Positions 18,069 through 47,971 are shown, counted from the first letter of the stretch. The stretch is 64,000 nucleotides of DNA from a virus (IMGVR_UViG_3300010163_000010:41183-105182), one strand, 5' to 3'. The notes: a model not told the origin generated them from the letters alone. Numbers and translations: made by a program.

Positions 18069-18280
18069 ACGGAACCCACCGTGATGCATTGGAGTTGGAG
18101 GAGCAAATATAAAGCCATATATACCATGCTCATCAACTATAAAAATTTCATCAGTATCAAACCCATAGTCCTCCGCCGGCGACAATTACGGAATATAGTG
18201 CAGTTATTGCTATATGTGCAGGGATAAGTAACTATTACACATATGTAAATAACCCGCCAACTGCACCTGGTGGGTTCCGT
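18069..18280. repeat. 212-bp element with 12-bp terminal inverted repeats and a central palindrome
   Basis: ACGGAACCCACC (18069-18080) / GGTGGGTTCCGT (18269-18280); CGCCGGCG at 18174-18181; half-copies at 32011-32126 and 47865-47971. Confidence 0.75.
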
Positions 18281-18284
18281 TAAA

Positions 18285-18312
18285 GAAATAAAAGCGGGGC
18301 CATCAGGCCCCG
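18285..18312 (-). terminator. Rho-independent terminator of the tail fiber gene
   Basis: GCGGGGCC/GGCCCCGC stem with T run on the - strand. Confidence 0.8.
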
Positions 18313-18325
18313 CAGTATGTTTTTC

Positions 18326-20344
18326 TTAGCCCACCGGAGTCTCGGTAGTCTCAACCGGTACCAGTACCAGCTGGCCAACCTGGGGATCGGTGACGTCGGA
18401 CAGGCTGTTCACAATCAGAGGCACACGCAGTGCCAGCTCGTTGAACGTAGTCTGATCGACGTAAGTGCTGTCCAGCTCGGCCAGCGTCTTGCCGCCAACA
18501 CTGGTAGCATCACCGGCGATATTCACATGCAGCTTTTCGTCGTCGGCAATCTTGACGATCTTGCCAGCCACGTCGGTGTTGCTGTCGCTGGGAATGCCGT
18601 CATCGGTCAGCAGGTCGCCGCCGATAGCATCAGTGATACCGTAGCCAGCCAGAGTAGTCGGAGTATTGTCGATGCTGCTCCAGTCGACGTATTTGCCGGT
18701 CTTCAGGTATACGGTTGCATACTCGGTAACGGCGCCGTCGGGAGTGTCAGGATCAGTCTTGGTAACAATCCATACACCATGGACCTGGCCGGCATTAGCA
18801 GGATCATACTCGATGACCACATCACCCGGGTTGACCATGGTGTTCGTAACCCAGGTAGAGGGAGCATCGGTAGTCTCCTTGGTAACAGCCTTGGTGATAT
18901 CGGAGGAGAGGTTGTCCTTGGAGATGATGCCCTTCAGCTTGCTGACATCAAGCTCCGTGATGCCGCTGCCGCCCTTGAGCGCAGCAATGTCACCCAGAAC
19001 CGTATCGGCTGTATCGGCATCGCCCAGAGTAGTCTGAATATTGGTGACCTTCTCAACCAGGCCGGCAACCGCTGCGGTGCCTGTATCAGGATCAGCCGGC
19101 TTGCCGTTCAGAATCTGGTCGATCGCGGTCTTGTGCTCATCAAACGTGGTGCTGTCGACGGCATCGGTAATACCATAGCCGACCAGAGTAGTGGGCTTAT
19201 TGGTAACGCCGGACCACGCAACAGCGGAGGCCTCGCCGGCGGTATAGGGCAGGTACGCATCTTTCCAGTCGGAGGTACCAAGCTTGGTCTCGTCGACCAC
19301 ATAGTACATCATACCGGCCTTGGTGATATTGCCCTCGCCGTCGGTCTCATCAGCGATCTTAACAGTATCACCCTTCTGTACCTGAGTAGTGGTCAGGCCA
19401 GCCAGATCGGCCTCAGATGTGATGACATGCATCTCAGACAGGGCCGCCTTGGGCACAACGGCCACGTCAAGGATGCCGGTCTTGATCCAGGAGGCGTCAG
19501 AATTCTTCAGGTCGTTCTGGAGGGTGGCGATATCCTTCTTGATAGTGCCGTCTGTGTCGGCATCGCCGATAGTGTCATTGATAGCATCGATATCAGTCTT
19601 CAGCGCCAGGTCAGCCAGCTTCTTGCCGCCGACAGAGCCAGCGTCGCCGGTGATATCGAAGTCCAGTTTGCCGTCGGCATTGGTCTGGGTAATCTTACCA
19701 GCCGCAGTCCAGTCCTCGGCGTCGCCGGCATTCTTGGCACCATGATCAACGATGGAGGCGGAGCCAACCGCATCGGTGATGCCATAACCGGCCAGAGTAG
19801 TCGGAGTATTGACGATACGATCCCACTTAACGTCAGAGGCAGCATCAGTCAGCGCGGCAAACTCCACTGTGGGAGGGTCACCCTCGGCAGCACCGGCAGT
19901 GACATTCTTGACCACATGGGTGGATACGACATTGCCCTCGCTGTCTTTGATCTGAACGATGTCGCCGATGTGCACGGAGGCCTTGTCCACAGCATCCAGA
20001 GAGGCAGCATCGACCACCTTACCGCCCACATCGTCAGGCAGGTTGCTGCGATCGATTACGCCGGTGATCTTGGACGCCTCAACCTCGGTAACACCGGAGC
20101 CGTCCTCCAGCTTCGGCAGAACCTCATGGTCGATTGTGGCAACGCGGTTGATGAGGGAAATCAGCAGATCGGAGACGTTATCGCCGGCCTCAAGAACGGT
20201 ACCGAAGCCGAACGGTTTGGTCTCGAGCTTTTCGATAGTGGAGGCTTTGCCCAGGCCCACGATGTCCGCAGACGTGCCGAGATAGATAGAGTCCCAATCG
20301 GTGCCATTGAATCGCCGAATCGTAGATTTCAGAATAGTAGCCAT
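18326..20344 (-). CDS. Tail fiber protein
   Basis: Three W..(I/V).N.PTTL.GYGITDA repeats typical of phage tail fibers; duplicated GITELDVSK/GVTEVEASK and I.GDA.SVGGK modules. Confidence 0.85.
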   Translation of the reverse strand: MATILKSTIRRFNGTDWDSIYLGTSADIVGLGKASTIEKLETKPFGFGTVLEAGDNVSDLLISLINRVATIDHEVLPKLEDGSGVTEVEASKITGVIDRSNLPDDVGGKVVDAASLDAVDKASVHIGDIVQIKDSEGNVVSTHVVKNVTAGAAEGDPPTVEFAALTDAASDVKWDRIVNTPTTLAGYGITDAVGSASIVDHGAKNAGDAEDWTAAGKITQTNADGKLDFDITGDAGSVGGKKLADLALKTDIDAINDTIGDADTDGTIKKDIATLQNDLKNSDASWIKTGILDVAVVPKAALSEMHVITSEADLAGLTTTQVQKGDTVKIADETDGEGNITKAGMMYYVVDETKLGTSDWKDAYLPYTAGEASAVAWSGVTNKPTTLVGYGITDAVDSTTFDEHKTAIDQILNGKPADPDTGTAAVAGLVEKVTNIQTTLGDADTADTVLGDIAALKGGSGITELDVSKLKGIISKDNLSSDITKAVTKETTDAPSTWVTNTMVNPGDVVIEYDPANAGQVHGVWIVTKTDPDTPDGAVTEYATVYLKTGKYVDWSSIDNTPTTLAGYGITDAIGGDLLTDDGIPSDSNTDVAGKIVKIADDEKLHVNIAGDATSVGGKTLAELDSTYVDQTTFNELALRVPLIVNSLSDVTDPQVGQLVLVPVETTETPVG

Positions 20345-20373
20345 AATTTTAAGTCACTCCTTTATCAAATAGA

Positions 20374-21684
20374 TTAGGGGCTTGATTGCTCTTGCTTGAG
20401 TATGATAAACTGAATCTTATCACCAGAATTCAGCACGATGTTATTCTTGAGTATCACATCGTTATTGCTAACGGTGTAATCGATACTCGGACGCAGCATC
20501 GTCTGACCATAGTTGACGATAATCTTATCGATACCACCATTGAACCCAGTGATATTCGAAATCTCAGTAACGTTATCATCGATAATCTCCATATTCTGGA
20601 CAATCGAGATGATATTGCCGGGCTTCTTATCCAACCGGTCAATCAACGGATCATACTTGTTTTCGATCGCCGTGACCGCCGTATTAACGGCATTATCGGT
20701 GTAAGATTTAAGCGCAGCCTCAAGATCATCGGCATTGTTTTGAATCTTCTCATCGATATAGTCACGAAGTTCTATGATTTCACGAGTTGCCTCTTCACGG
20801 AACATTCTCAGGCGTTCAGACAGCATAGAAACCGTTGTTTGCAGGGCCGAATCCGTGGATCGCAGTAGTACCCAATTGCTGTTCTGTTTGTCATATACAA
20901 GCATTATAATGTTGTTTGGGGCTATTGTGATGGCCAGGGGCTCGCCACTTGTATCGACAATGGGCATATATTCTCCATTATTGTATGAGAGTTTTGCCCC
21001 GGGAAACAGCGGATTGGTTACTCGTACGGTGATGACAGAAAGATCAGGAAGATCTCCGGTGTAGGGTTTGTGCCGAATATCAGCCATCAGCCCGCCATTG
21101 ATTGTCTCGGCAAAGATGCCGTGTCCGCTGATGTCTGCCCAACCTTCAAACATTTGCTTAATATAGTTGTATCTGCCTTCATAAGCAGCACATGCGTTGT
21201 TGTCATAATAACGGATAAATACATGGCCTTCATCGGACTTATATGCGACACATATGCCGTTATCTGACGGCCAGTTCAGTTGCTCATAGTTCTCATATGT
21301 AACTGGGGCAAATAGTATGGCCGGATGATGCATTTGCCGAAGTACCGTGTCGGGTGTAAAGTTTATTCCAACATCATCGAGTTGTGTTAATCGACTGTAG
21401 ATAGTTACGCCATCGACAGTATCGGCATTGAGAATATCCTTACTGTAGTTATACTTATTGAGTATGGGTTGAAGATATTTGAGGCTGTTCGGTGAAAACA
21501 GCTCTCCTGTATGGGGATTACGTATAACAAGTGTGCCGTCCTTGTAGTTGATTCCAAGCTCTCCTGGAGCGAGTTTCTGTCCATCAGCCTCGCTCATCAC
21601 CTCCGGCAATATGATCCGAAAGATATCAGATAAGAGTTGGCACTGCCACGCAGACAGCGTGGTATTAACAGGATCACGCGTCAT
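20374..21684 (-). CDS. Tail fiber-associated protein
   Basis: LAPGELGINYKDG N-terminal motif, coiled coil and a C-terminal VNYGQT module; start set at ATG 21684 after the promoter and GGAGGT RBS. Confidence 0.65.
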   Translation of the reverse strand: MTRDPVNTTLSAWQCQLLSDIFRIILPEVMSEADGQKLAPGELGINYKDGTLVIRNPHTGELFSPNSLKYLQPILNKYNYSKDILNADTVDGVTIYSRLTQLDDVGINFTPDTVLRQMHHPAILFAPVTYENYEQLNWPSDNGICVAYKSDEGHVFIRYYDNNACAAYEGRYNYIKQMFEGWADISGHGIFAETINGGLMADIRHKPYTGDLPDLSVITVRVTNPLFPGAKLSYNNGEYMPIVDTSGEPLAITIAPNNIIMLVYDKQNSNWVLLRSTDSALQTTVSMLSERLRMFREEATREIIELRDYIDEKIQNNADDLEAALKSYTDNAVNTAVTAIENKYDPLIDRLDKKPGNIISIVQNMEIIDDNVTEISNITGFNGGIDKIIVNYGQTMLRPSIDYTVSNNDVILKNNIVLNSGDKIQFIILKQEQSSP

Positions 21685-21704
21685 AACAGCTCTTACCTCC
21701 TTTT

Positions 21705-21716
21705 TATAAGGTTGTT
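21705..21716 (-). promoter_or_regulatory. Late-type promoter AACA-ACCT-TATA
   Basis: Matches RACA-N4-TATA. Confidence 0.75.
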
Positions 21717-21729
21717 TCGACATAATAGA

Positions 21730-21753
21730 AGGGGAGGGAATCGTCCCTCCCCA
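21730..21753 (-). terminator. Rho-independent terminator
   Basis: GGGGAGGGA/TCCCTCCCC stem. Confidence 0.7.
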
Positions 21754-21756
21754 AGT

Positions 21757-24700
21757 CTATTCGTCTTCGTAGTTTGCGTCAATAGCGTACGGTGCATTCC
21801 CGTGATGAATGAGTCCAGGAATGACAACCTTAGCGTCTCGTTCGTTTATGCCGACAAGATCGGTATCGGCAATATCATGGAACTTACGCTTGAAATCCTT
21901 GACCCATTCTTCAGCTTCATGCTTGTTCTGCTCAAGGTAATCAAGCATTGCTTTCAATCTGCCGTTGAAGATATACTCTTCTAGCAGAACGTCATAGTAA
22001 CCACGCATGGTATACTCTGTGATATGAATGGGTATCATTCGTGCATAGTTTCGATTCGGCCGCTGGATACTCTCGGATGTATCAGGTTCATTCCAGTATG
22101 CGATGCAAGCTTTCTTAGCCTTGCTCAGCCATTCATCTTTCTTGCTGTAGAAGATATCAACGCAGCGAATGATTTCTTTGAAATCAAGCAGCAGAATCTT
22201 TCCGGCTGTAATTTCCTGGTATTTATCCCTGGATACATAGTGACCATTGACGAACAGCATCATCCGATTCTGAATGAAAGCTACTTCTCTGAGACTGTAG
22301 TCTATGACCATTCGATATGCGGATTCACGTTCACGCACATCAGTGTCAGGAGATTCATAATCGATATGAAGCCTCCCGATATTGCTTGAGAACATTACAG
22401 AGAAATCGGTGGTGTCTATCAATGCCGTAGAGATCACATGAGAACGTCCTGTATACAGACGCTCGAGTCTTAGGTCAAATCGATCAGGCCCGGTGACCAG
22501 ACGTTTGTAAAAGACATTTACGTTCTCCTGTTTGATTGCCCCGGAGTTCAAGAGGTCCGCAACAATGCTGATGTATCGAATACCGAGTTTCCCTCTGAAG
22601 TTCATTACAACATCGTCGAACAGGAATGCTGTAACGTTATCATGATCGAACTGAACGTGTATGAGTCGCTCATTGACTCGGATAATGATAGATTCTGTAT
22701 CAGAGTAGCAAATCTTATCATCGATGTCATCCAGGAACTCAAACCACACATCATTCTCTTCAGGGGCCTCTGCATCGAAACTTTCTCCCATGTGAATCTT
22801 GTGCAGCTTATTGTCTGTTCGCGGCTTAAACAGTTCAACATCGCTCGCGGTTCCATGAGCTCCATAGTCGAATACTACTGTAGCATTTTTGCCATCAAAG
22901 AATCCTTTGGGCATATAATAGTAAGCTTCTGTCAGCGGGTGACTGATGATCTCCTGGATGTAGTCAGGCAAGGTCAGTGCTGGGATATCAATCCACAAAT
23001 CTCCTACATTCATCGGGTCGGGTTCAAACTCGGAGTAAATGTATGTGAGATTGTGTTTCTCCGCACGACTGATGAGGACATTGCTGGCATTCTCTGGCAC
23101 AGCTAACCAGTAGTCACCGATGTCAACATCGAACGGTTCGTCATCAGACATGATATACTTGATCGGTTTGGATCTCTTAGTGGGATCAGTGGATCCTTGC
23201 CGCATTTCGGTATTTTTATTGTAGATGTAGGCTGTGAGAAGTACTTTATAGACAGCCATATTCAGGCTCTGCTCGTTCATCTGATCAAGATAGTTGTTCC
23301 ACAGATCTACAACTTGCCTGCGATACATGGAATCAGGATCATCAATGTAGCTGGTAATCAGCTCTTTCTTTTGTTTGACCGTTAGAGCTGCGATCTCCGC
23401 TCCGGTAATGGTGATGCCAGTCTCTTCATCCATATAGGAGATATTGCTAAGAGAGTATTCTTCCTCGACATCAACTCGATCAATACCATCGAGAAGTTCA
23501 TTGATAACATCATCCATATCCGGATTATCTTCGCCGGTATCTGCGATAATATCTCCAACGGCAGGATCGGCTGACATGGGTCCGCTATGGACTTCGTACT
23601 CATCGATAACCTCTGTAGTATCCATCTCTGGATTTTCAATGGCCGAATCATTCATCTGTGGATTATCAGGCAGTTTGCCATAATCGATCTGGTGATAAAC
23701 TTTAACAGCCGGATCATCCACTCCATCTCCAGACTGAATGACCAGATACTTCTGATGATGCTTGCTGAGTTTGTAGTATGTGAACAGCAGGTCTGTATAT
23801 CTTTCCGGACCTTCATCGGGTTTTAAACCAAGAGAGTACATACCTTCTTTGAGATCTTCGGGAAGATTATACGGGTCAAGACCAAATGACTCGATAACTT
23901 CGATCGTGTCCTGATTGAATACTTCAGGGACAACGTTGACCAGTAACTCGTACCACATATTCGTATCGTGTTCATTCGGAGGAGCGGTTGATACACGTAC
24001 GAATTGATCTTCATTGTAATCATATACCTTACCACGAAGAATCAAAAGATTTCGATAGAATCGATTCATCTTAATATGGAGTCTGGCCAAGTTCTCTTCA
24101 TCGATATATTCACCGAGGTTTGTGATCTGTGTATCTTGTTCAGCGTTGAATTTGATCAGAGTCAGTCCATCGATGTCAATCTCCGGGTCGAGTATTACAT
24201 ACCGGAGAATCCCGATCTTATCCTCAATGTATTCAGTATGCTTATCAAATAGCCTCATGACTTCATAGTCGCTGTAGATCATTCCATTATAGAAGAGTAT
24301 GTCTCTATGTGACTCAAACGGTACGAGACTGACAATACCATAGACTGCGTTTCCATCGATTCTGTAGATGTTTGTCTTAATGAATGTAGGTTTACCAAAG
24401 ATATGGTTATCACACATCAGAAAGTCTGATTGTTCATTGCAGAAGAACGGGAATTTTTCCCAAGCTCTATAGCAGTATGCGGCTATACGACTGAACTTAT
24501 CCAGAATAGTCACATCATCATCTGCAGCACGGATTTCTTCATCGATCGGTTTCAGATTGTTTAAATATTCGTTGTCTGTATTGTATGGATCTTCAATGTA
24601 ATCAAATTCCGGATATGTGACTAGTCGAGATACTTCGGGCATTGGGACATAGGAACTATCATCGGTGAATACACGAACGATGCAATCCTTATCCGCAGTA

Positions 24701-25422
24701 ATGCACGGATAGAACATTGTATTCACATTGATATCATCGGCTCCATTGTTTATTATCATTCTGTGATAACAGTATTTACTGTACATGGAATCAATATATG
24801 TTCCAACGCCAGCTTTGATCTCAAAGATACCCAGTAATGAACCACTGAAGATTAAATCTATCGATCGTTTATAGGTGCAGCTGAATTCCAGTGTGTCTGC
24901 ATCGATCCGTTTTACCTCGGGGATCTTAAGTACCCCATCGGCAATATAGTAAGCGGAATGTTCCGGGTGCGACATATCACAGTACGGATGCGCTCTAAGG
25001 TTTATCCGTTCAATGTGAGTATGCGTTGTGCCGGCAGTTTCTGCGTCTGGATCAACAGCACTGTATCTCTTAGCGATATTGTCGATAAAGATCAGTTTGA
25101 CATCTTGTGTTTCGAAGTACTGCTTGGGCAAAATGCCGTACAGATGCACCCAGCCTTCGATCCAGGTGATATCTTCCGGGTTGACATACTCGTCATCTAC
25201 CCAGACCTCGAAGAGCCCTTTATCGCCGATATCAGTCATAAAGTGCGGATTAAGATATCCAATACGATCGATATCATTGTAAAGAACCTTGCAGTGCTTT
25301 ATTTTGCGTTCTTTGATTACATTCCAGGTAGAGCGAATACGATAATCTTCCGTAGAGAGGAGACCCATCTCACTGAGCGTATTGTAGAACTCGCTGTTTC
25401 GTTTTATCTCAGAGATAATCAC
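21757..25422 (-). CDS. Large acidic virion structural protein (tail/baseplate block)
   Basis: 1221 aa; repeated EP....GD.W. motifs seen in tail proteins; lies in the late minus-strand block. Confidence 0.6.
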   Translation of the reverse strand: MIISEIKRNSEFYNTLSEMGLLSTEDYRIRSTWNVIKERKIKHCKVLYNDIDRIGYLNPHFMTDIGDKGLFEVWVDDEYVNPEDITWIEGWVHLYGILPKQYFETQDVKLIFIDNIAKRYSAVDPDAETAGTTHTHIERINLRAHPYCDMSHPEHSAYYIADGVLKIPEVKRIDADTLEFSCTYKRSIDLIFSGSLLGIFEIKAGVGTYIDSMYSKYCYHRMIINNGADDINVNTMFYPCITADKDCIVRVFTDDSSYVPMPEVSRLVTYPEFDYIEDPYNTDNEYLNNLKPIDEEIRAADDDVTILDKFSRIAAYCYRAWEKFPFFCNEQSDFLMCDNHIFGKPTFIKTNIYRIDGNAVYGIVSLVPFESHRDILFYNGMIYSDYEVMRLFDKHTEYIEDKIGILRYVILDPEIDIDGLTLIKFNAEQDTQITNLGEYIDEENLARLHIKMNRFYRNLLILRGKVYDYNEDQFVRVSTAPPNEHDTNMWYELLVNVVPEVFNQDTIEVIESFGLDPYNLPEDLKEGMYSLGLKPDEGPERYTDLLFTYYKLSKHHQKYLVIQSGDGVDDPAVKVYHQIDYGKLPDNPQMNDSAIENPEMDTTEVIDEYEVHSGPMSADPAVGDIIADTGEDNPDMDDVINELLDGIDRVDVEEEYSLSNISYMDEETGITITGAEIAALTVKQKKELITSYIDDPDSMYRRQVVDLWNNYLDQMNEQSLNMAVYKVLLTAYIYNKNTEMRQGSTDPTKRSKPIKYIMSDDEPFDVDIGDYWLAVPENASNVLISRAEKHNLTYIYSEFEPDPMNVGDLWIDIPALTLPDYIQEIISHPLTEAYYYMPKGFFDGKNATVVFDYGAHGTASDVELFKPRTDNKLHKIHMGESFDAEAPEENDVWFEFLDDIDDKICYSDTESIIIRVNERLIHVQFDHDNVTAFLFDDVVMNFRGKLGIRYISIVADLLNSGAIKQENVNVFYKRLVTGPDRFDLRLERLYTGRSHVISTALIDTTDFSVMFSSNIGRLHIDYESPDTDVRERESAYRMVIDYSLREVAFIQNRMMLFVNGHYVSRDKYQEITAGKILLLDFKEIIRCVDIFYSKKDEWLSKAKKACIAYWNEPDTSESIQRPNRNYARMIPIHITEYTMRGYYDVLLEEYIFNGRLKAMLDYLEQNKHEAEEWVKDFKRKFHDIADTDLVGINERDAKVVIPGLIHHGNAPYAIDANYEDE

Positions 25423-30294: not shown

Positions 30295-30322
30295 TATATA
30301 TTACTAAAGGAGTGTGCGATTT

Positions 30323-31603
30323 ATGAATTCCATTACGGTAGGGGACCTGTACTTCTTGAAGAGCCCTATTATCAGCACTAGTCACAGTATCGAGCAGGAG
30401 AAGAAATTGAGCTACCTCCTGGGAACAGTGTCCACGAGGCCGGCTGTTGTTATCCGTGCTCCCGCGTGGTGGGATGAGTTCGAGACCGTTACGGTTATCC
30501 CCGCTATGAGCAAGGGCAACCCCGCCTTGAAGATGCATCTGACTGATCGGTATGGGCGGATGTCCAAAGCCGAGTACCCGTTTATCCCGCACAACCCGTA
30601 TACGGTTCCGGTGTCCAGGTTGGGTAAGTATATCGGCTCTTTGGACAGAGAGGAGCTTAAGGAGCTCTTATATGCTTTTACGTGGATCCATGATGCCACC
30701 ATGCAGGAAAACCCGACCTGTAGAGTCCCGTCTATCTACCAGCACGTAAGAGCTAAAAAGATACCGCCGGTCAATAACTGGTTAGATCATCACGACATAA
30801 GAGCAGAAACGGAGCTCGTCGTCGATGAAAATAATATCTTGACTTGTAAGGAGGATCTGACGATGAATGGATTCAAGATCATTCCTGCCGACACCCCTGT
30901 CGAGAAGCAGGAACGCCCGAAAACCGTCGTAACCAAAGCTACCGCGTTCAAACCGAGAGCGCGTGATGAGTCCAAGGAGTTCCCGCCGTCGACGTTCAGC
31001 GATGAGACCCTGCACCAGGTCGCTTCCCGGTTTAATATTAGCGCTGGCTACTATAACAACACGATCACCAAGCGGGATCCGAGCGTTCTGCGGCCTGACG
31101 AGATTGATACCATCCGTAAGAATCTCACCGCAAGAGAGTTTGATGAGATGGCCCAGTACTATAAGACCTTGACGCCCTTCGATGCGTTTGTCCTCGGGCC
31201 TCGTCTGCCCACCAGGGTCCTCATCAACATCACCGGGTTCAGCTACGATAACACTCTGGTGCTGAAGTCTCTGTGCAACTATATGCGCGATATGGATACC
31301 GAGGAATACAAAACCAGAATCGTCAACCGCGCAGTGAGCAAACTGACAAAGACTCAGGCACCTAAGCCTGCTGATCAATCGGCAGTCACGGAATCCACAT
31401 CTCCGGATTACAAGCAATACCTGGCTCGGGTGAAGCCGTGGCTCAATCCGAAGAAGATCACTAAGATGCCGCCCAGTATGGCTGAGCTGTTCGTGCAGAT
31501 TCCGATGGGCATGGTTAAGCGTGCGTACCATGGCACGCAGTTCGATCAGAAGTACGCTGCAGCTATGGAACTCTACAGCAAGACTACTTCCGGGAATAAG
31601 TAA
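30323..31603 (+). CDS. MazF/PemK-like endoribonuclease domain fused to a long C-terminal region
   Basis: VGDLYF, TRPAVVI, TVTVIPAMSK and RLGKYIGSL..EEL follow the PemK/MazF pattern. Confidence 0.65.
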   Translation: MNSITVGDLYFLKSPIISTSHSIEQEKKLSYLLGTVSTRPAVVIRAPAWWDEFETVTVIPAMSKGNPALKMHLTDRYGRMSKAEYPFIPHNPYTVPVSRLGKYIGSLDREELKELLYAFTWIHDATMQENPTCRVPSIYQHVRAKKIPPVNNWLDHHDIRAETELVVDENNILTCKEDLTMNGFKIIPADTPVEKQERPKTVVTKATAFKPRARDESKEFPPSTFSDETLHQVASRFNISAGYYNNTITKRDPSVLRPDEIDTIRKNLTAREFDEMAQYYKTLTPFDAFVLGPRLPTRVLINITGFSYDNTLVLKSLCNYMRDMDTEEYKTRIVNRAVSKLTKTQAPKPADQSAVTESTSPDYKQYLARVKPWLNPKKITKMPPSMAELFVQIPMGMVKRAYHGTQFDQKYAAAMELYSKTTSGNK

Positions 31604-31648: not shown

Positions 31649-31659
31649 TATATACTATA
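31649..31659 (+). promoter_or_regulatory. Early-type promoter TATATACTATA
   Basis: Matches the recurring motif. Confidence 0.75.
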
Positions 31660-31701
31660 ATCATGAAGGTCAGAAGATCAAGATATAGGAGGTAGACAAT
31701 T

Positions 31702-31947: not shown

Positions 31948-31965
31948 TAGCAGCAGGAACGAGAT

Positions 31966-31997
31966 GGCCCGGGGAAATCCCCGGGCCGTTTCTTTTT
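31966..31997 (+). terminator. Rho-independent terminator
   Basis: GGCCCGGGG-AAAT-CCCCGGGCC plus T run. Confidence 0.85.
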
Positions 31998-32010
31998 CCT
32001 GTGATGGGCA

Positions 32011-32126
32011 CGGAACCCACTAGAACTTCGATAATCGACACTGCTTATCATACCATCAACGTAGTGATTAGGACCTTCATGTATTACAATGTTGTATACC
32101 CCACAGATAGCATCTGCCGCCGGCGA
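32011..32126 (+). repeat. Half-copy of the dispersed CGGAACCCAC...CCGCCGGCGA element
   Basis: CGGAACCCAC at 32011-32020; CCGCCGGCGA at 32117-32126. Confidence 0.7.
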
Positions 32127-32189: not shown

Positions 32190-32357
32190 ATGTTAGAGCC
32201 CGTTGATGTTCCCGATGATAAGAATAATCATAAAATGCTCTATCCGAGTAATGATCACCCCATTTCTACTTGGTATGGGGTGATTCTTGAGGAAGGCCTT
32301 AGGAATGCAAGTAACTATGTCACAACAACTCTGAAGCGTATGAGGGATACCGAATGA
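32190..32357 (+). CDS. Small hypothetical protein (55 aa, not in the ORF track)
   Basis: MLEPVDVPDD...RMRDTE*; AAAGGATGTG RBS; stop overlaps the sbcD start (ATGA). Confidence 0.6.
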   Translation: MLEPVDVPDDKNNHKMLYPSNDHPISTWYGVILEEGLRNASNYVTTTLKRMRDTE

Positions 32358-36147: not shown

Positions 36148-36148
36148 G

Positions 36149-37079: not shown

Positions 37080-38411
37080 ATGAGTAAAAAGGGTAAACTC
37101 GGAAGAAAGGTGCAGCCTCCTAAAGATGGTCCTATTCATATAGGTAATAAGATAGAATACAACACGCTTACCCGCAGTCAGAAGAAGGCCGATAAGATCT
37201 TCAGTGACTGGTTTTTTGGAGAAAAGAACTCTGATACTCAGATACTTCGGATAGGTGCAACCGGAGGAAGCGGAAAGTCGTATCTGATCAGTTACTTGCT
37301 GGATGCATACAATTTCGATCAGTCGAATTGTTATGTCATGGCATACACGGGACAGGCCGTGAATGTTCTGCGTAAGAATCAGATTTTGGCCAACACGATT
37401 CACTCCACGGTTATGTATCCCAAAGAGGAACCCGTGTATGATAAAGAGACCGGGAAACCGCTGCTGAAACGTGGTGTACCTGTAACCAAGCAGGTATTTG
37501 TTCCTCTGAGAAGAATCCCTTCGGAGATACAACTTATCATCATTGATGAGGCATCATTCCTCCCTGAGGAACTTGAGAATATCCTGAAGAGATACAATGT
37601 TCCTATTTTGGAGGTAGGCGATCCCATACAGCTTCCTCCTGTTGGGGATAGGCAGGTATTCACCATGGATACTCTTAATTATTTCTTCGATGAAGTAATG
37701 CGTCAAGACCGAGACAGCGGGATCTATGATCTGGCCAATAAACTTCGTCGTGGAGATAATATCTATTTGTCTGATTACCATGATGATATGCTGTTTCTTC
37801 ATGCACAGCAAACGGTGGAAGAGACGTTCTATCGGTTCCTGCCGTTCTTTCGATCTGCGGATATCATCATTACTAATACCAACAAGCAGCGGCAGATTGT
37901 GACTGATTTGTATCGCAAGGTCATCCTGAAGGCTAAGACCCCATATCCGATGAAAGGTGAGAAGGTTATTTGTCGTCGTAATAACCGGCAATTGTTCTTG
38001 GATCAGTATATTCTCACCAATGGTACTATCGGTACCGCGTTGGATACAGTTGGCAGGAGTCAGATAGATAAGCAAGCTGGAACGTTCTTTATGGATTTCC
38101 AGCCGGATGTCACGAAGCATCTTGGGATGTATTATACCAATCTTGTGTGTGACAGCGAATTCTTTCGCAAGAATTATGGTGTGACTGATGATTTGGCATA
38201 TAAGCGGCCTGGAGAGAAGTTTGAGTTCGCACATGCCATCACCACACATCTATCTCAGGGGGCCAGTTTTCCTACGGTGTTGTACATGGATTCATACAAC
38301 CGTGATCCTGAGTATCAGATGCGCATACGTTACACCGCAATAACACGGGCGGAACAGCGAGTGATATATATTCTGCCCTATACACCATATCCAGACTGGG
38401 AGGTATTTTAA
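37080..38411 (+). CDS. dda: Dda/RecD-like SF1B helicase
   Basis: GGSGKS, AYTGQA, TIHS, IIDEAS, GDPIQLPPV, VMRQ, AITTHLSQG, YTAITRA. Confidence 0.9.
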   Translation: MSKKGKLGRKVQPPKDGPIHIGNKIEYNTLTRSQKKADKIFSDWFFGEKNSDTQILRIGATGGSGKSYLISYLLDAYNFDQSNCYVMAYTGQAVNVLRKNQILANTIHSTVMYPKEEPVYDKETGKPLLKRGVPVTKQVFVPLRRIPSEIQLIIIDEASFLPEELENILKRYNVPILEVGDPIQLPPVGDRQVFTMDTLNYFFDEVMRQDRDSGIYDLANKLRRGDNIYLSDYHDDMLFLHAQQTVEETFYRFLPFFRSADIIITNTNKQRQIVTDLYRKVILKAKTPYPMKGEKVICRRNNRQLFLDQYILTNGTIGTALDTVGRSQIDKQAGTFFMDFQPDVTKHLGMYYTNLVCDSEFFRKNYGVTDDLAYKRPGEKFEFAHAITTHLSQGASFPTVLYMDSYNRDPEYQMRIRYTAITRAEQRVIYILPYTPYPDWEVF

Positions 38412-40879: not shown

Positions 40880-40892
40880 ACATGCATACAAA

Positions 40893-41024: not shown

Positions 41025-43397
41025 GTGGCAACCAAGTATGATGCCAGTTCGATTGTTTCGATTAAGGACGACCGGACAAGGCTGAGACTGCGTCCTACGC
41101 AATTTATTCCCAGCACCTATGCCGATGGTGCATTGCACATTATCTTCGAGATCATTGATAACTCGATCGATGAGTTGTCCATTGATGATCCCGTTGGTAA
41201 TCACTTGTCCGTGACCTTCGACGTTAAGACCAAGGAGGTCACGGTTATCGATGATGGCCGCGGCATTCCGCAGGAGCGGCTGCTTGAAGTGTGCACAGTA
41301 CTGAATACCTCGGGCAAGTTTAACAACACCGAAGAGACTGCCTATGCGCATAGCGGTGGTACGTTCGGCGTTGGATACAAAACTGCGGTGTTCCTTTCCA
41401 AGACATGTGAAGTGACGTCTATGCGAAAGGGCAAATCATTGACGTATAAGTTCAAAGACGGCCTCTTGACTGATACGATCAACACAAAATGCAAAGAGCA
41501 TGGCACCATGACCAAATTCACCATCGATAACGATATCATCGAGATCAATGGTGTTTCGGTTGAGGACATCAAACAGCGGCTGTATGAGAAAAGCTTCTGC
41601 TTCCCTGATATTTATATCGTGTTTACGATACTGGACGACGGGAAAGAGGTTAAGACTCATACGTTCTTTGGCAATACCTTGCTCGACTTAGTGAAGAAGG
41701 ATAAGCCGGATACCGAGATCATCCAGGTGTCTGATTCCCGTAAGGTTCGATTGTTGAAGAACATTGCCGATGATGACATCAGTGAGATTAAAGTAGTGAC
41801 TGAAGCGGCTTTCGCGTTCAAAGATGGTGCTCTTGATGCTGATACTGATACCTTCATCACAAGCTATGCGAATAGCATTAAGACCTACGATGGTGGGTCG
41901 CATGTTGAGGGGTTGAAGCTTGGCATTGTGAAGTTCTTTAAGGAAGTCGTTGTTCCTAAGTTTGGCAAACGGGACAAGGGTTTGCCCGTTATGCCCAGCG
42001 ACATCACTTCTGGTCTGTGTGGTGTCGTTAGTGTTAAGCTCAATAAACCGGAATTCAGCGCTCAGCACAAGTCCAGGCTGACCAACACTGAGGTAAAGTA
42101 CGCGGTCAGGGATGCCGTGTTCGATACCCTCAGTGAGCAGAAGCCGGCTGTGATCAATGCTATCGCTGATTTCGTCAAACGTGTCACCAGAGGACGCATT
42201 GCGTCCAAGAAGAGCCGAAAGAAGGATGTCGACAATGCATTCTCAAATGACCGGATTGTGATGTATACCCCGATCATCTATAACATGAAAACGACTTCTC
42301 CGGAATTGGTGCTCGCAGAAGGAAACTCTGCGGCATCTGCAGCAGCCACTGCCAGGGATCCGAATAACCAGGCGATCTATATGGTTAAGAAGCCGAAGAA
42401 CGTCTACGATGTTGACATTGATGACGTGGCCCGGACGACCCTCGGTGTGTTCAACAATCTGTGTGACATCTGCAACATCGAACCTGGCAAAAAGTGTGAT
42501 CCCAGCAAATCCACTATGCAGAGGATTCTCATGCTGACCGATGGTGATGTCGATGGTGATAATATCGCTGTGTCAGTGGTTGCGCTCTTTGCTAAGCACT
42601 GTAAGCCGATGATCGATGCGGGTATGATCGGACGCATTCTGCCTCCGGCGTATTCGTTTACGACTAAGAAGGGCAAAACTCGCTTTGTGCGATCTAAGCG
42701 TGAGTTCTTTGATATCATCATGAATCGCTTTGTGTCCGAAGTAACGGTTTCGCTGAATGGGAAGAAGATGACCAATAAGCAGCTGTATGCTTTCCTGGAT
42801 CATAACTTTGAATACGACACCGATCTTGAGGCACTGAGTGATTGGTTCTGCTGCGAGCCCAAGGCCATGGAGTATATCATCTGGAAGTACCATGGAGACT
42901 ACAAAGAGCAGAAGAAGTCGTACTGGATGACCGCTATGAAGAGGTATAGCGATATCCGGGTTCTGCTGGAGAATGGTTCGGTTGTTCTCGATGGTGAGCT
43001 TCCCGGTGGTAGTTTCATCAACATTGCTTTTGACGAGAATTTCGATAGACGTATTCGGGAATTCAAAGTCAAGCAGTCCGCGAACAGCGAGATAACCGGG
43101 TATAAGATTGGGGATTCGGATGACAAGAAGACTTTGTACGATGTGATGCACATGTTCCGGGGCTATATGCCGTCCGGGGTTAAGCGTTACAAGGGACTTG
43201 GTGAGCTGGATACGGCTGAGATGCAGGAACTCTGTATGAACCGGGATAAGCGAACGGTCATCATCTTCAAGTTCAAAGACTTTGAATCCGACATGGATAA
43301 GATTGACATCATCATGTCCACGAAGGCAGAAGCAGCAGAGGCCCGTGCGGACATCGTCACATCCATTCGTTTGGCCAATCGTGACCTGGACACCTAA
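41025..43397 (+). CDS. gyrB: Type IIA topoisomerase subunit B (GyrB/ParE-like)
   Basis: EIIDNSIDE, DDGRGIP, SGKF, SGG.FGVG, GGSHVEG, EGNSA, TDGDVDG, RYKGLGE. Confidence 0.92.
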   Translation: MATKYDASSIVSIKDDRTRLRLRPTQFIPSTYADGALHIIFEIIDNSIDELSIDDPVGNHLSVTFDVKTKEVTVIDDGRGIPQERLLEVCTVLNTSGKFNNTEETAYAHSGGTFGVGYKTAVFLSKTCEVTSMRKGKSLTYKFKDGLLTDTINTKCKEHGTMTKFTIDNDIIEINGVSVEDIKQRLYEKSFCFPDIYIVFTILDDGKEVKTHTFFGNTLLDLVKKDKPDTEIIQVSDSRKVRLLKNIADDDISEIKVVTEAAFAFKDGALDADTDTFITSYANSIKTYDGGSHVEGLKLGIVKFFKEVVVPKFGKRDKGLPVMPSDITSGLCGVVSVKLNKPEFSAQHKSRLTNTEVKYAVRDAVFDTLSEQKPAVINAIADFVKRVTRGRIASKKSRKKDVDNAFSNDRIVMYTPIIYNMKTTSPELVLAEGNSAASAAATARDPNNQAIYMVKKPKNVYDVDIDDVARTTLGVFNNLCDICNIEPGKKCDPSKSTMQRILMLTDGDVDGDNIAVSVVALFAKHCKPMIDAGMIGRILPPAYSFTTKKGKTRFVRSKREFFDIIMNRFVSEVTVSLNGKKMTNKQLYAFLDHNFEYDTDLEALSDWFCCEPKAMEYIIWKYHGDYKEQKKSYWMTAMKRYSDIRVLLENGSVVLDGELPGGSFINIAFDENFDRRIREFKVKQSANSEITGYKIGDSDDKKTLYDVMHMFRGYMPSGVKRYKGLGELDTAEMQELCMNRDKRTVIIFKFKDFESDMDKIDIIMSTKAEAAEARADIVTSIRLANRDLDT

Positions 43398-43411
43398 GAG
43401 GAGGAAGACTA

Positions 43412-43768
43412 ATGAAGATTGTCGATAAGAACGTCACCAGGAACAGCATTGTCTCGATCACTGTGTTGTTGGAGAGTCCCACGGATAAGGCCGCTTACGA
43501 CAAGATCGATGTGGTCAAGACTTGCCCGCACTGCGGCAAGCCGACCAAGCCGGCTCCGGACTCCTACAAGATCCTGATTCACAACCCGCTTACCAAGCCC
43601 ATCCCGGGCAGTCCGGTTGACCTCGGGGAGATCCACACCAAGTGCTCGTCGTGTGGCAAGGAGATCGTTGATGCATCGCAGTATGATCTCTCGGCGTTCA
43701 ACGAGGTCACCCAGTTCCTTGATCAGCTGAGGGATGCGGCTAAGAATAAAGTGAAAAGCCGGAGGTAG
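43412..43768 (+). CDS. Small Zn-ribbon protein between the topoisomerase subunits
   Basis: CPHCGK...CSSCGK; GGAGG RBS; strong codon bias. Confidence 0.8.
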   Translation: MKIVDKNVTRNSIVSITVLLESPTDKAAYDKIDVVKTCPHCGKPTKPAPDSYKILIHNPLTKPIPGSPVDLGEIHTKCSSCGKEIVDASQYDLSAFNEVTQFLDQLRDAAKNKVKSRR

Positions 43769-43778
43769 ACGTTAAGTT

Positions 43779-46421
43779 ATGGCAAAACGCAAGAAACAGG
43801 AACAGAGCAGTGGACCAATTAAACTCATACCGATTCCTGGCGGTCGGTATGAGCAGTTCCTGCACAGGAAACGTCAGAAGGAGATCAGGCAGATCCCCAA
43901 AGACTCGTATGACTATCTGACTACTTTGGTGGATATCAACGGCAGTGTTAACATCGAAGATATGTCGGAGGTTGGTGTCGGGGATTACACCCTCTCCAAA
44001 GGTCTTATCCACGCGATGAATATGAACGTTGGCCGGCAGATTCCGTGGATTGAGGATGGTCTCAAATCTGTTGAGCGCCGGGCACTGTATGCAATGTGGG
44101 TTGGCGGCTACTACGGCAATAAGAGCATCAAAGTTGCATCTGTTGTAGGTGCCATGATTGAGAAGTATTACCCTCATGGCGACAGAGCGCCGGCTGACAC
44201 CATATATCGTCTGGGACGATCCAAGACTATGATGTTGCCGTATGTGCGGCCCAAAGGCAACTATGGTAACATGCAGGATTTGGAACCGGCTGCATCAAGA
44301 TATGCTGAAGCATCTTTGAGTGATTATGCCAGAGATTGCTTCTTTGGTGATATTGGGCCCAGGAGACCGCTCTATGATGAGCGTGACACCTATGAGTACA
44401 CCAGCAAAGAGCCTATCTATCTGATCAGCCGGTATCCGAATATTCTGATGCAATGGAACTTGGGTATTGGCAAAGGAGCTGCCAGTTGGCTCGGTGCTTT
44501 CAATAGCATTGAATTGATGAAGGCGACTCTGGATCTAATGAAAGACCCCAATGCGGTGATTGATATTTATCCGGATGCCCCAGTGCCGGTAAATATTGTG
44601 AATAAGGATGAACTTGCAGGGTGCTTTGATCGAGCTAAGTTCAAAGTGATGATGCGTGCTCCTTATCACACAATAGTAGATCAGCGCCGGTCTGGAAACA
44701 AGATTGAGGACAAGTTAGCTATTGTCTTCACGGCACTGCCTCTTGGCGTAGTTGGTAATCAGATCGCAGATGAGATAACCCGGATCAAGAAAGATGAAGC
44801 CAAGAAGGCATCCAAGCGACTCCCCGAAGTGCTGAATGTTGAGATTGCTGTGGACGATGTATCCCCAGGTGGCATCGAGATCATTGTGGAGTATGAGCGT
44901 GGGTATGATCCGCATGTGTTGGCCGAAAAGCTCTATAAGTCCACATCGTTGGGGAAGACAATCGGCGTCAACTACAATCTGATCATTGATAATATGCCGG
45001 TTGTCAAAACGCCTCGGGAAATACTGCTGATTTGGATTAATCAGCGCTATGATCAGAAGCGTCGGTATTTTCATCAGCTGGTTATACAATCGGCTATTGA
45101 TCGTGCCACCTATGATGCCCTGGTAATGGTTCTTAGCACTTCTGATGCGACCGATAAGGCCATTGCGCTGATCAGGAAATCCAAAGACAAGACTGCCGCA
45201 ATCGAAGCTTTGCAGAAAGCATTCAGCATGACCAACTTCCAGGCTCGGCAGGTGATCAAGATCCCTCTTGGTAACCTGTCCAAAATGAGCATCACCGAGG
45301 TTATTCAGAAGCGTGATGAGGCGATTAAGTCCTATAAGCACTATCGGAAAATGCTCAGTGACGATGGATCTATCCAGAAGGCGGTCTATGATGAGGTTGT
45401 GGCTGGCATGAAGAAATATGGAAAGCCGCGAGTCGCGAACCTTATGAATTTGGAGAGCGAGGGTGTTGGATCGGATACTGATACAAAGTATTTGATCTAT
45501 AATTCCGAGTATTACTTCTGTGTGGATAAGCCGGAAGATTTACCTGGAATCATTGATTCGTTGAACAACACCTATCAAATGGTTCAGGTTCAGAATTCTG
45601 ATAACGTCCTGGTGTTTACCCGTGCAGGTAAGTTAAAGATTCTTAATGGCTATGCATTTAATCTGACGGATACCGGAATTGCTGTCAGTACCCTCGGGAT
45701 CAAGGATATCGCTAGTATCGTGAACGGCAACCCAACCAGAGAATATATGGATCTGGTGATGGTTACTGAGCAGGGATACGGCAAGCGCATATCATTTGCC
45801 GAGGCGACCAAGTCCGTTAAGAGCAGCGTCATTAACCTGAGCACCGGAGATTCCCTTGCAGCGGTGATTCCGGTGAAGACAAATAATCACCCGGATTCGA
45901 TTATTGGGATGATTCAGGGAGACAAGATGTATTATTTGCGTCTTGACAGCTTCCCGGTCTACAAGAGAGCCTCTGCCGGCAATCGACTCATCAAGGGTGT
46001 AAAAGATCTTCAGATCACTGGAGCAGTATACTTTGACGCCACCGATGGGTCGAACTATATGCTGATCTACGGGGAATCTGGATATATCAAGCTTCTTGAT
46101 ATGGCGTTCCTGTCGTTTGCTAAGCGCGGCAATAACTCGGTGTCCCTTCAAGGTAAGAAGATTATCGGCGCTGCGCTGATTCACGGCAAACCTAAAGCGT
46201 TGTCGAATCATGACCCCGAGGCAGATACACGGTCGGAGTTTGACGACAGCGTTATGTTGTACTGGGGCAAGGGCAAACTGGAAATCAACTTGCAGATCGG
46301 CAAGACTGTGCTGTTCAAAGCTGCTACCGGCGAGACACAGAAGTTCAAGATGTCAACATCGATTGGCAGCCCGGTAAAAGTTCTGAAGGTATCCAAAAAC
46401 GAGTGGTACCATATTCAGTAG
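43779..46421 (+). CDS. gyrA: Type IIA topoisomerase subunit A (GyrA/ParC-like)
   Basis: DGLKSVERR, YYPHGD, GNYG, AASRY (catalytic Tyr), GIG.G; C-terminal pinwheel-type repeats (VTEQGYGKR). Confidence 0.92.
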   Translation: MAKRKKQEQSSGPIKLIPIPGGRYEQFLHRKRQKEIRQIPKDSYDYLTTLVDINGSVNIEDMSEVGVGDYTLSKGLIHAMNMNVGRQIPWIEDGLKSVERRALYAMWVGGYYGNKSIKVASVVGAMIEKYYPHGDRAPADTIYRLGRSKTMMLPYVRPKGNYGNMQDLEPAASRYAEASLSDYARDCFFGDIGPRRPLYDERDTYEYTSKEPIYLISRYPNILMQWNLGIGKGAASWLGAFNSIELMKATLDLMKDPNAVIDIYPDAPVPVNIVNKDELAGCFDRAKFKVMMRAPYHTIVDQRRSGNKIEDKLAIVFTALPLGVVGNQIADEITRIKKDEAKKASKRLPEVLNVEIAVDDVSPGGIEIIVEYERGYDPHVLAEKLYKSTSLGKTIGVNYNLIIDNMPVVKTPREILLIWINQRYDQKRRYFHQLVIQSAIDRATYDALVMVLSTSDATDKAIALIRKSKDKTAAIEALQKAFSMTNFQARQVIKIPLGNLSKMSITEVIQKRDEAIKSYKHYRKMLSDDGSIQKAVYDEVVAGMKKYGKPRVANLMNLESEGVGSDTDTKYLIYNSEYYFCVDKPEDLPGIIDSLNNTYQMVQVQNSDNVLVFTRAGKLKILNGYAFNLTDTGIAVSTLGIKDIASIVNGNPTREYMDLVMVTEQGYGKRISFAEATKSVKSSVINLSTGDSLAAVIPVKTNNHPDSIIGMIQGDKMYYLRLDSFPVYKRASAGNRLIKGVKDLQITGAVYFDATDGSNYMLIYGESGYIKLLDMAFLSFAKRGNNSVSLQGKKIIGAALIHGKPKALSNHDPEADTRSEFDDSVMLYWGKGKLEINLQIGKTVLFKAATGETQKFKMSTSIGSPVKVLKVSKNEWYHIQ

Positions 46422-46436
46422 AGAGAATATTCGAGA

Positions 46437-46496
46437 TATATACTATATCGGTGAAGTGAGGGGACGTGTTCAGTAATATGCTGGGCACGTCCCCTC
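46437..46496 (+). promoter_or_regulatory. Early-type promoter with a 5' leader hairpin
   Basis: TATATACTATA at 46437-46447; GAGGGGACGTGTTCAG/CTGGGCACGTCCCCTC at 46458-46496. Confidence 0.7.
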
Positions 46497-46520
46497 CTTA
46501 CATTTACAACAGGAGGTTTC

Positions 46521-47861
46521 ATGATGAAAGGCATTATCATTAACAGCCAGACCAGTGCGGCTATGCTCTCCACGTTTTTGGAGGCGGCTGTACCGCATCT
46601 GAAGGTGGAGAACATCTCCGCCGGCCAGAAGTACTATACCTTGGCTGTCGACAATGGGGTTCTGCGGCTGAACCACGGTGTCAAGGTTGGCATTGAGCAG
46701 TGGGGCACCAAGCTCGACTCCGACTTCGCCAAGCTGCCGCTGTTGCCTCTGTCGATGGGCCAGGAGATGGTAGAGAAGGTCATCAGTAACTCCAAGGGCG
46801 GCATGTTCGATGTGAACAGCCCCGACCAGCTGTATGAGTACTACTCAGTGATCTCTGAGAATATGATGATCGTGGTTGATCCTAAGCTCGCGGCTGGCGT
46901 TTGCGGAGGCAAATTCAGGATCTATCGGATTCCGGCGAGTATTGTTGATAGTGAGTGGGCTGTGGTATCGGTCTTGCGTTATGAGGGAGCTACCGTCGGG
47001 ACTCAGCAGTATAAGACGTTTGGTGTTGAGTGCTATGACGAAGAGGATCTTTGCTGTATTGATAGGTGGCTTGCCATCAACTGCGGTGCTCGTACGATTG
47101 AGGAGGCCACGGGTATCAAGCCCATTTACGAGGGCGACTCTCTGCTCAGTGCATACTATGCCTTGCAGCTTATCACTGATGCTGGGCAATATGAACCCAA
47201 TGATACCGAGATTGAGTATCACTTCGGCCCCGGTTGGGACAATGCGCATCAGGCCAAGAAATTAAGCCTTGCCATTGGGATGGTACCCAAAATGTGCGGG
47301 TACACCCATAATGATGACGAGGGAACTGGTCGTGCGTTTATGGGTATGCTCTATAGCGAGGATGGCATCGTTGCCCAGTATATCGCGGGTTATCACATGC
47401 CCACCGAGGAGCAGCTCAATCAGCTCTATAACATGCATTACCAGATTGTGGATTTGATGGTTGCTGGTAAGTTGGAAAAGACCATGCCGGATTACACCGA
47501 CAAGTTCGAGTCGTATATCCAGTATACCGGCACTAACCTCTCTAGCTGCATTGCTATGTTAGTGGACCTTACCGATGATGCTGTATCTGCAGAAGACAAC
47601 GTGGATATCGATGAGCGGGAATCCAATCCTGGTAATGCTGCCATTGCGCAGCTTGAACGCTGCGGATGCTCGGAGGTCTACTGCAACTTTGACATCGGCA
47701 ATACCGAACATATCACTGGCGCGGTGTGCACGCCTGACGACGAGGACGACGAGGACGAGCCGGAGAAGTTCGTGAGGTCTGCGTGCCCGTTTATGTATCC
47801 CTGCTACGGGATTAACTGCAAGGCCATCGAGGCCAGGGACGATGAGGACGAAGGCGACTGA
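46521..47861 (+). CDS. Acidic early hypothetical protein
   Basis: 446 aa; AGGAGGT RBS; Cys-rich acidic C-terminus. Confidence 0.8.
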   Translation: MMKGIIINSQTSAAMLSTFLEAAVPHLKVENISAGQKYYTLAVDNGVLRLNHGVKVGIEQWGTKLDSDFAKLPLLPLSMGQEMVEKVISNSKGGMFDVNSPDQLYEYYSVISENMMIVVDPKLAAGVCGGKFRIYRIPASIVDSEWAVVSVLRYEGATVGTQQYKTFGVECYDEEDLCCIDRWLAINCGARTIEEATGIKPIYEGDSLLSAYYALQLITDAGQYEPNDTEIEYHFGPGWDNAHQAKKLSLAIGMVPKMCGYTHNDDEGTGRAFMGMLYSEDGIVAQYIAGYHMPTEEQLNQLYNMHYQIVDLMVAGKLEKTMPDYTDKFESYIQYTGTNLSSCIAMLVDLTDDAVSAEDNVDIDERESNPGNAAIAQLERCGCSEVYCNFDIGNTEHITGAVCTPDDEDDEDEPEKFVRSACPFMYPCYGINCKAIEARDDEDEGD

Positions 47862-47864
47862 TAC

Positions 47865-47971
47865 CGGAACCCACCAGCTTCAGTAGCCAGAATTCCATTC
47901 TGTACGGTTGATCCTGCTGGCGTTGTCATCGGAGGAATCGGTATTCCCTTACTATAAATCGTCGCCGGCGG
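47865..47971 (-). repeat. Half-copy of the dispersed element (matches the right half of the 18.1 kb copy)
   Basis: - strand CCGCCGGCGACGATT...ACTGAAGCTGGTGGGTTCCG, 107 bp, the same length as 18173-18279. Confidence 0.75.

Follow-up and report, generated by a model that had tools for sequence, protein, structure and literature searches.

The stretch of DNA described here is a window of 64,000 nucleotides (bases 41183-105182) in the 105,182-bp viral contig IMGVR_UViG_3300010163_000010, a phiKZ-like jumbo-phage contig that is rated 41% complete and encodes phiKZ-type virion proteins among its genes. In intergenic gaps of this window lies a bipartite element, in which an 11-nt motif, GGTGGGTTCCG (hereafter the arm), faces a GC-rich core, (T)CCGCCGGCGA. 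An earlier interpretation of the window, made from the DNA letters alone (the sequence-only reading), had taken this element for a non-coding site bound by protein. Here we describe that the stretches between core and arm are coding in character, and we weigh the possibility that they are silent cassettes for the tip of a tail fibre.

Arms, cores and the frame between them

The element was found at three loci of the window, A, B and C. In the case of locus A, it is a full element (arm-core-arm) made of two head-to-head cassettes. It begins 13 nt past the terminator of a 672-aa fibre-like gene and lies ahead of the promoter-like box and ribosome-binding site (RBS) of a 721-aa gene. Loci B and C carry single half-elements, the cassette of C being placed between the stop codon of a 446-aa gene (47859-47861) and the terminator of that same gene. 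The four exact arm copies reported by the sequence-only reading, CGGAACCCAC, were recovered at 18070 (+), 18270-18279 (-), 32011 (+) and 47865 (+). The same is true for the 12-bp terminal inverted repeats of locus A and for core-arm distances of 94, 88, 97 and 88 bp, with three cores involved, as the single core of locus A serves both arms. This core, the 11-mer TCCGCCGGCGA, is among the commonest 11-mers of the contig. Terminators had been reported beside all three loci; those of A and B were detected by a scan, that of C by eye only. The positions of all features are collected in Table 1.

Table 1. Element copies and adjoining features (window coordinates unless marked as contig)
Feature	Position	Strand	Details
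Array of three tandem arm-core-arm units	contig 6107-6871		
Single half-elements	contig 31.2 kb and 38.3 kb		
Window loci in contig coordinates	contig 59.3 kb (A), 73.2 kb (B), 89.1 kb (C)		A, full unit; B and C, single
Locus A, full element, two head-to-head cassettes with common core	18069-18280	.	inverted arms 18069-18080 and 18269-18280
Cassette Al	18072-18182	-	37 codons, S-P-A-E ... G-G-F, G-type; stop-free frame, 3n length
Cassette Ar	18173-18277	+	35 codons, P-P-A-T ... G-G-F, then R and stop; A-type
5' joint (core) common to Al and Ar	18172-18182	.	TCCGCCGGCGA
Intrinsic terminator of the upstream 672-aa fibre-like gene	18294-18313	-	
Terminator preceding cassette B	31961-31992	+	terminator scan
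Cassette B	32013-32126	-	38 codons, S-P-A-A ... S-G-F; arm 32011-32020, core CCGCCGGCGA 32117-32126
Cassette C	47867-47971	-	35 codons, P-P-A-T ... G-G-F; arm 47865-47875, core TCGCCGGCGG 47962-47971
Terminator-like hairpin and T-run after cassette C	47983-48016	+	by eye; 9-nt loop, beyond the loop limit of the scan tool

When arms were counted in the whole contig, allowing at most one mismatch to the 11-mer, 12 were found, and each was paired with a core on the correct side. The half-elements hence number at least 12 in this partial genome, four of them inside the window (two at A, one each at B and C). Outside the window lie the array of full elements and two single half-elements, which carry the cassettes E and F. 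The copies are spread over 83 kb of the contig. Because the intervals between the loci (contig 6.1-6.9, 31.2, 38.3, 59.3, 73.2 and 89.1 kb) are irregular, the period of about 15 kb deduced from the three window loci is not real. Full elements measured 212-291 bp and ended in inverted repeats of 10-12 bp.

Important insight was gained from the arm-core distance. This distance had been described as conserved; across the 12 half-elements it ranged from 92 to 164 nt and was constant only in being always of the form 3n+2, which is a coding signature. The chance that all 12 distances equal 2 modulo 3 is about (1/3)^11. The cassettes were 33-57 codons long, and 12 of 12 were multiples of three. In the frame in which the core is read as S/P-P-A and the arm as G-G-F-R, no stop was present in 407 interior codons (conserved ends excluded), as compared to 18-44 stops in the other five frames. 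GC contents at codon positions 1/2/3 were 0.48/0.42/0.27 in the cassettes, a clear triplet periodicity, and 0.52/0.37/0.52 in the long open reading frames (ORFs) of the contig. Relative to these long ORFs, Trp (2.5-fold), Tyr (1.8-fold), Gly (1.6-fold) and also Pro were enriched in the cassettes, while Lys (0.2-fold), Gln (0.4-fold), Arg (0.5-fold) and also Leu were strongly depleted. This amino-acid make-up is opposite to that of translated random AT-rich DNA and is typical of exposed binding loops. Altogether, the cassettes are under protein-level constraint.

The open frame, the codon periodicity and the non-random amino-acid make-up speak against the non-coding, protein-bound site. Centromere, origin, packaging and topoisomerase sites, all named as candidates, gained no support, and the copies are not periodic. 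Regarding a family of small RNAs, no Rfam match was obtained at the gathering threshold and the fold z-scores of 11 copies lay between -1.0 and +2.4, so that a structured RNA could be rejected; a tRNA scan found nothing. Two further candidates of the same reading, a recombination site and a mobile element, pointed in roughly the right direction, as the joints probably recombine and the elements are insertions in comparison with related genomes (see below). The spacers were correctly described as dissimilar, their interiors being mutually unrelated at both the DNA and the protein level. A fold-back duplication at the palindrome was considered and dropped, since the two halves of each element are unrelated.

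Every cassette is bounded by both conserved motifs (core 8/8, arm 12/12). The codons at these bounds are TCG CCG GCG or CCG CCG GCG at the core and GGT GGG TTC CG at the arm. The core had been reported as an 8-bp palindrome, which holds for its centre, but the site as a whole is 10-11 nt long and asymmetric in 8/8 element cores. On one side, P-P-A precedes a codon with first base A; on the other, S-P-A precedes a codon with first base G. In the window, CGCCGGCG occurred five times as compared to 0.59 expected, and none of 100 shuffles reached five. Arm and core are most likely recombination joints.

Some further occurrences of both motifs were seen. In the whole contig, CGCCGGCG was counted 14 times with about one expected, and six of these are orphans. 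Two orphan canonical cores of 10-12 nt lie inside large genes, one at 19234-19241 of the window (in the 672-aa fibre-like gene) and one at contig 29311 (in a gene exceeding 1048 aa); neither is in the cassette frame, and neither has an arm. An arm-like GGTGGGTTTCT at contig 38264-38274, which belongs to a terminator and is separated from cassette F's arm by 44 nt, has no core in its vicinity and may be a decayed cassette end. Terminator stems in two of the related genomes introduced below also resemble the arm (G001, 152729-152752, and G003 at site A, contig about 16.6 kb; GGTGGGTTAC/GTAACCCACC and GGACCCACCC/GGGTGGGTCC), possibly a coincidence among G-rich stems. The idea that the arms themselves are terminator stems was dropped, as no T-run follows them.

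Surroundings of the cassettes and empty sites in relatives

A consistent start codon or RBS was not found upstream of the cores, where the reading frames run into a stop within 1-30 codons. In full elements, two cassettes diverge from a common core, so that the upstream region of each is the antisense strand of its partner. Terminators also precede cassette B and the array at contig 6.1-6.9 kb. Among the single cassettes, B, C and E run against the transcription of their surroundings; C and E sit between a stop codon and its terminator, antisense to that very transcript. Cassette F has convergent genes on its two sides and is antisense to one of them, sense to the other. The GC content at third codon positions (0.27 vs 0.52 in long ORFs) indicates no codon adaptation, and would fit sequences that are held in frame but not selected for translation efficiency. 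Like donor-type sequences, the cassettes have no start codon or promoter and keep an intact reading frame. From these features they appear to be silent where they lie. Two routes to expression were considered and dropped: a read-through extension of upstream genes, because the frames differ between C and E, and a frameshift from a 171-aa gene into cassette F, which needs +1 or -2 and has no supporting signal.

In the case of cassette B and a further cassette, D5, the outer flanks are near-identical over about 55 nt, comprising terminator, T-run, a spacer of about 24 nt and the arm (window 31966-32020, contig 6861-6916). This similarity stops precisely at the inner edge of the arm, and the interiors are unrelated. 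Terminator, T-run and spacer of the two are identical, and their combination occurs nowhere else in the contig. Such a pattern cannot arise by point mutation and suggests either the replacement of an interior between fixed joints or the homogenisation of the joints. No match of the cassette interiors was found elsewhere in the contig or in three related genomes.

For comparison, three related viral records (G001-G003) were found via the topoisomerase gene, and two closer ones via a 1221-aa gene with 58-62% identity. Gene order is conserved between the contig and these relatives. None of these five carries the elements, and at the syntenic sites of G001, G003 and the two closer relatives they are missing. 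Site A in four relatives consists only of a terminator, a short promoter-like box and an RBS, and its intergenic gap measures 84-98 bp in relatives with gene calls vs 298 bp here. Relative to these empty sites, which the sequence-only reading had proposed to look for, the elements are insertions. A k-mer scan of the relatives found no analogous arrays, and exact-protein look-ups of flanking genes found no other assemblies.

Several observations concern the neighbourhood of the elements. The 11-mer TATAGTATATA or its complement, placed upstream of genes (for example at window 31650-31665), is among the commonest 11-mers in the contig and in G001-G003, ranks first in G000 and G003, and probably represents a phage promoter. 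Another box, CCTATAGTA or CCATATAAAG, stands directly before the RBS of the 721-aa gene and of its orthologues. Between cassette B and a 394-aa gene, a 52-codon ORF with a plausible RBS (window 32191-32349) is missing from the shorter spacer of the relatives. Finally, a 429-aa protein (window 30314-31603) carries an N-terminal PemK/MazF-like toxin domain (28 bits), and its gene is kept in the relatives.

Correspondence with the variable regions of relatives

The related genomes contain diversity-generating retroelements (DGRs). In the case of G001, a reverse transcriptase (RT, 55 bits) and a 100-nt pair of template region (TR) and variable region (VR) were identified, the mismatches of which all fall on TR adenines except two, both in the 3' tail. 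The closest relative has a classical DGR as well, with RT, TR and VR. Its target is a 376-aa protein, of which the N-terminal part matches the solved tail fibre 8vbx gp47 (E = 8e-14) and the C-terminal part scores beyond the Pfam cut-off for DUF6273. Two further relatives show the same arrangement, and RTs of the DGR type occur commonly in this clade.

A G-F-R ending is known for DGR variable regions. The TR/VR block of four relatives opens at S/T-x-A/P codons directly behind W-W (TCG CCT GGC in the closest one) and closes at G-F-R-P with the nucleotides GGGTTCCGGCC. The cassette joints are found at the same two positions and in the same frame as these VR ends, and at the 3' joint eight or nine bases are identical. 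Likewise, in a profile-profile alignment of the 12 cassettes with the VR/TR segments of nine relatives, a hydrophobic strand, Pro and G-F came into register (P = 0.007, single comparison). In published work, DGR variable regions are located at the C-terminus of DUF6273, which is described as a C-type-lectin-like domain. Taken together, the match of the joints, the register and the location of DGR variable regions at the end of DUF6273 lead us to read each cassette as the equivalent of a whole variable region of a fibre tip.

There are also clear distinctions. The cassettes do not form equal-length TR/VR pairs; the relatives' pairs show the adenine pattern. The conserved tail that follows GGGTTCCGG in both TR and VR of the relatives is not present in the cassettes. 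G001 contains only TR and VRs, with no dispersed copies. The possibility that the cassettes are products of one DGR template was dropped in view of the differing lengths, the unrelated sequences and an Asn content of only 6%.

Regarding the DGRs of the clade, three side observations can be added. Firstly, the RTs P0091 and P0086 both carry the motif D-G-F/Y-x-x-L-x-P-K, which seems to be a clade-wide tag. Secondly, both ends of the 230-kb G001 contig lie in the same DGR target gene (L116:99-182 and L127:10652-10735), with an identical constant part and different VRs; the probable cause is a circularly permuted genome whose assembly was interrupted where the DGR target varies within the population. 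Thirdly, in one relative the VR is one codon longer than the TR (L350:8601-8690 vs L350:9584-9670), and adenine mutagenesis alone makes no insertions or deletions.

A possible store of receptor-binding loops

The explanation that we favour, with slightly better than even confidence, is that the elements form a dispersed library of silent whole-VR cassettes for a DUF6273-type fibre or receptor-binding tip, which are copied into a fibre gene off the contig. The core would be the 5' joint and the arm the 3' joint. An expressed acceptor would carry the same two joints, with (T/C)CGCCGGCG and GGTGGGTTCCGG as expected bounds, and would lie in the missing 59% of the genome, probably where the relatives encode the fibre gene beside the RT. 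A cassette would be copied into this acceptor by recombination or gene conversion, crossing over within both short joints; the whole binding loop would be replaced and the binding of the fibre changed. We infer the acceptor, the copying step with its enzymology, and a link to host range. Since the transcription around three of the four single cassettes yields antisense RNA, copying at the DNA level is favoured, with a complementary DNA (cDNA) route via a DGR-type RT as the main alternative. Speculatively, the palindromic centre of the 5' joint could let cassettes join head to head by either route. In a wider and more tentative form, which we place somewhat below even, the jumbo phage may supplement or replace point-wise DGR mutagenesis with a genome-wide store of unrelated whole VRs that are swapped at two joints of 10-11 nt. 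In this form, the palindromic 5' joint would permit head-to-head joining and may be the site of a nuclease, recombinase or RT.

Several results weigh against this library. An acceptor gene with both joints was not found in the 105-kb contig by regular expression, hidden Markov model (HMM) or DUF6273 family search. Neither an RT (RVT_1) nor a recombinase gene was found there; the RT region of the relatives belongs to the missing part of this incomplete contig. A resolvase search of the contig gave no match, and the sole integrase match (11.8 bits, sub-threshold) lies inside a phiKZ-type virion protein. Furthermore, joints of only 10-11 nt are short for ordinary homologous recombination, and the cassettes are scattered, not clustered beside an expression site as in vls or pilS libraries. 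HH-suite (hhalign) assigned a probability of only 5% to the cassette-VR alignment, so that the profile alignment is weak support on its own. The cassette HMM matched no VR in the relatives' loci nor in 80 gut-phage DGR loci. The homology of cassettes and VRs rests mainly on the joints and their register. Finally, the databases hold no strain-level relative (closest protein identity 62%), and hence no copying event was observable.

Searches beyond the contig and its relatives, in viral contigs, metagenome contigs and protein collections, likewise brought no acceptor to light. In viral contigs, the arm...core pattern gave 92 single matches, about the number expected by chance and all in GC-rich contigs, none of which was cassette-like after a frame and stop filter. 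The pattern of the full element had 0 matches in viral and metagenome contigs. With the half-element pattern, at least 120 matches were obtained in metagenomes, all by chance, and the core...arm pattern extended by GGCC gave 2 chance matches only. A cassette profile run against 1.84 billion proteins retrieved only unrelated repeat proteins, and a search for longer proteins nothing. The cassettes matched nothing in Pfam, PDB or the ESM Atlas. The FGE-sulfatase and Lcl_C lectin families were not found in the contig, the former also not in the relatives.

The alternative that survives best, although we regard it as unlikely, is that the cassettes are alternative RNA templates. A whole cassette transcript would be copied by a DGR-type RT of the phage, and the VR would be exchanged for the resulting cDNA; priming or homing would take place at the arm, while the GC-rich core would supply the short 5' homology for cDNA integration. 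This would agree with the coincidence between the joints and the TR/VR block ends of the relatives' DGRs, and with the frequency of such RTs in the clade; P0091, a JGI-only RT from a 12.45-kb contig that was not traced to DNA, could belong to the phage. Conceivably, the 8-nt self-complementary 3' ends of two cDNAs could also anneal and thus yield head-to-head pairs. However, the low Asn content and the lack of A-rich AAY runs make the cassettes unlike a TR, and neither a conserved tail after GGGTTCCGG nor a common 3' spacer is present. Sense RNA is unexpected, given the antisense position of three among the four single cassettes and a terminator ahead of one, and the contig has no RT gene.

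Ranked after it, and likewise improbable, is selfish or fossil DNA, i.e. VR-derived fragments spread by a palindromic element resembling miniature inverted-repeat transposable elements (MITEs), or by past ectopic recombination, and functionless now. The terminal inverted repeats of the full elements, their apparent insertion at sites empty in relatives and their location in neutral intergenic gaps beside terminator hairpins would all be in line with this. Yet mobile copies should be alike, and here, unlike in MITEs or repetitive extragenic palindromic (REP) elements, the interiors are unrelated and no target-site duplication is visible. Fossils would also gain stops and frameshifts, whereas 12 of 12 cassettes are open and of 3n length, with exact joints.

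It is very unlikely that the full elements are invertons, which would flip between their inverted arms and regulate the downstream structural genes (721 aa at A, 785 aa at the array). Units of 212-291 bp that end in inverted repeats of 10-12 bp and immediately precede large genes of virion or fibre-like type do have this appearance, but single half-elements, the coding constraint and the match to VR ends would be left unexplained, the contig has no invertase or integrase gene, and the promoter-like box lies outside element A. Least credible of all are non-coding protein-binding sites (att-like, centromere, origin, packaging) or a small-RNA family, which two short conserved motifs at a roughly fixed intergenic distance might have suggested and which the frame and stop statistics between these motifs largely refute, together with a spacing of 92-164 nt, copies that are not periodic, no Rfam match and folding no better than that of shuffled sequence.

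Silent-cassette gene conversion is known from Neisseria pilE/pilS, Borrelia vlsE/vls and the Treponema tprK donor sites. The cassettes resemble these systems in being start-less and promoter-less donors with short conserved bounds that encode surface-exposed variable loops. In contrast, the host is here a virus, the donors are scattered singly or head to head, the joints measure 10-11 nt, one with a palindromic centre, and the acceptor was not observed. Shufflons and multiple inversion systems (R64 Rci/sfx, Min of p15B, Gin of Mu, Cin of P1) show a similar geometry, as successive cores in the tandem array enclose two convergent coding tails, and shufflons also vary an adhesin or fibre tip. Here, however, no constant gene part reads into any core and no recombinase gene was found in the contig; unlike the C-terminal ends of those systems, which are bordered by a single repeat type, the cassettes are internal, carry a different joint on either side, and are dispersed over 83 kb.

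DGRs acting on DUF6273 or C-type-lectin-like fibre tips, e.g. Mtd of Bordetella phage BPP-1 and gut-phage DGRs (PMC11792537; bioRxiv 10.1101/2024.10.15.618418), are alike in their likely purpose of varying the binding tip of the fibre. In a DGR, one template is used, only adenine-templated positions change, and length and scaffold are fixed, whereas here at least 12 unrelated scaffolds of 33-57 codons exist, none of them A-rich. Orphan toxin cassettes of CdiA/Rhs are also start-less spare modules that keep a short junction motif for recombination into a main gene. They differ in encoding long C-terminal toxin domains, every one paired with an immunity gene, that follow the main gene as a tandem series of uniform orientation. 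REP elements, bacterial interspersed mosaic elements (BIMEs) and Rickettsia palindromic elements share short repeats of alternating orientation near gene 3' ends or terminators, and those of Rickettsia can stay in frame. Their copies are similar in sequence, while here conservation is confined to the ends and the interior shows protein-type constraint.

A full-text search found no published description of silent cassettes in phages or in jumbo-phage tail fibres. If the wider form of our proposal is true, it would be virus-encoded cassette switching for host recognition, none of which is described in the searched literature. For annotation, the practical consequence is that a jumbo-phage repeat labelled "intergenic" should not be taken for a DNA site until 3n spacing and stop-free frames have been looked for. 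The repertoire itself, as natural loop variants on a lectin-like scaffold, could serve in binding tests. If our proposal is correct, the whole binding loop of a receptor-binding protein could be changed in one step from a stored repertoire, as compared to the point changes within one scaffold made by DGRs. It would then constitute a third phage route to vary host recognition, besides invertases and DGRs, and a viral counterpart of the bacterial antigenic-variation libraries.

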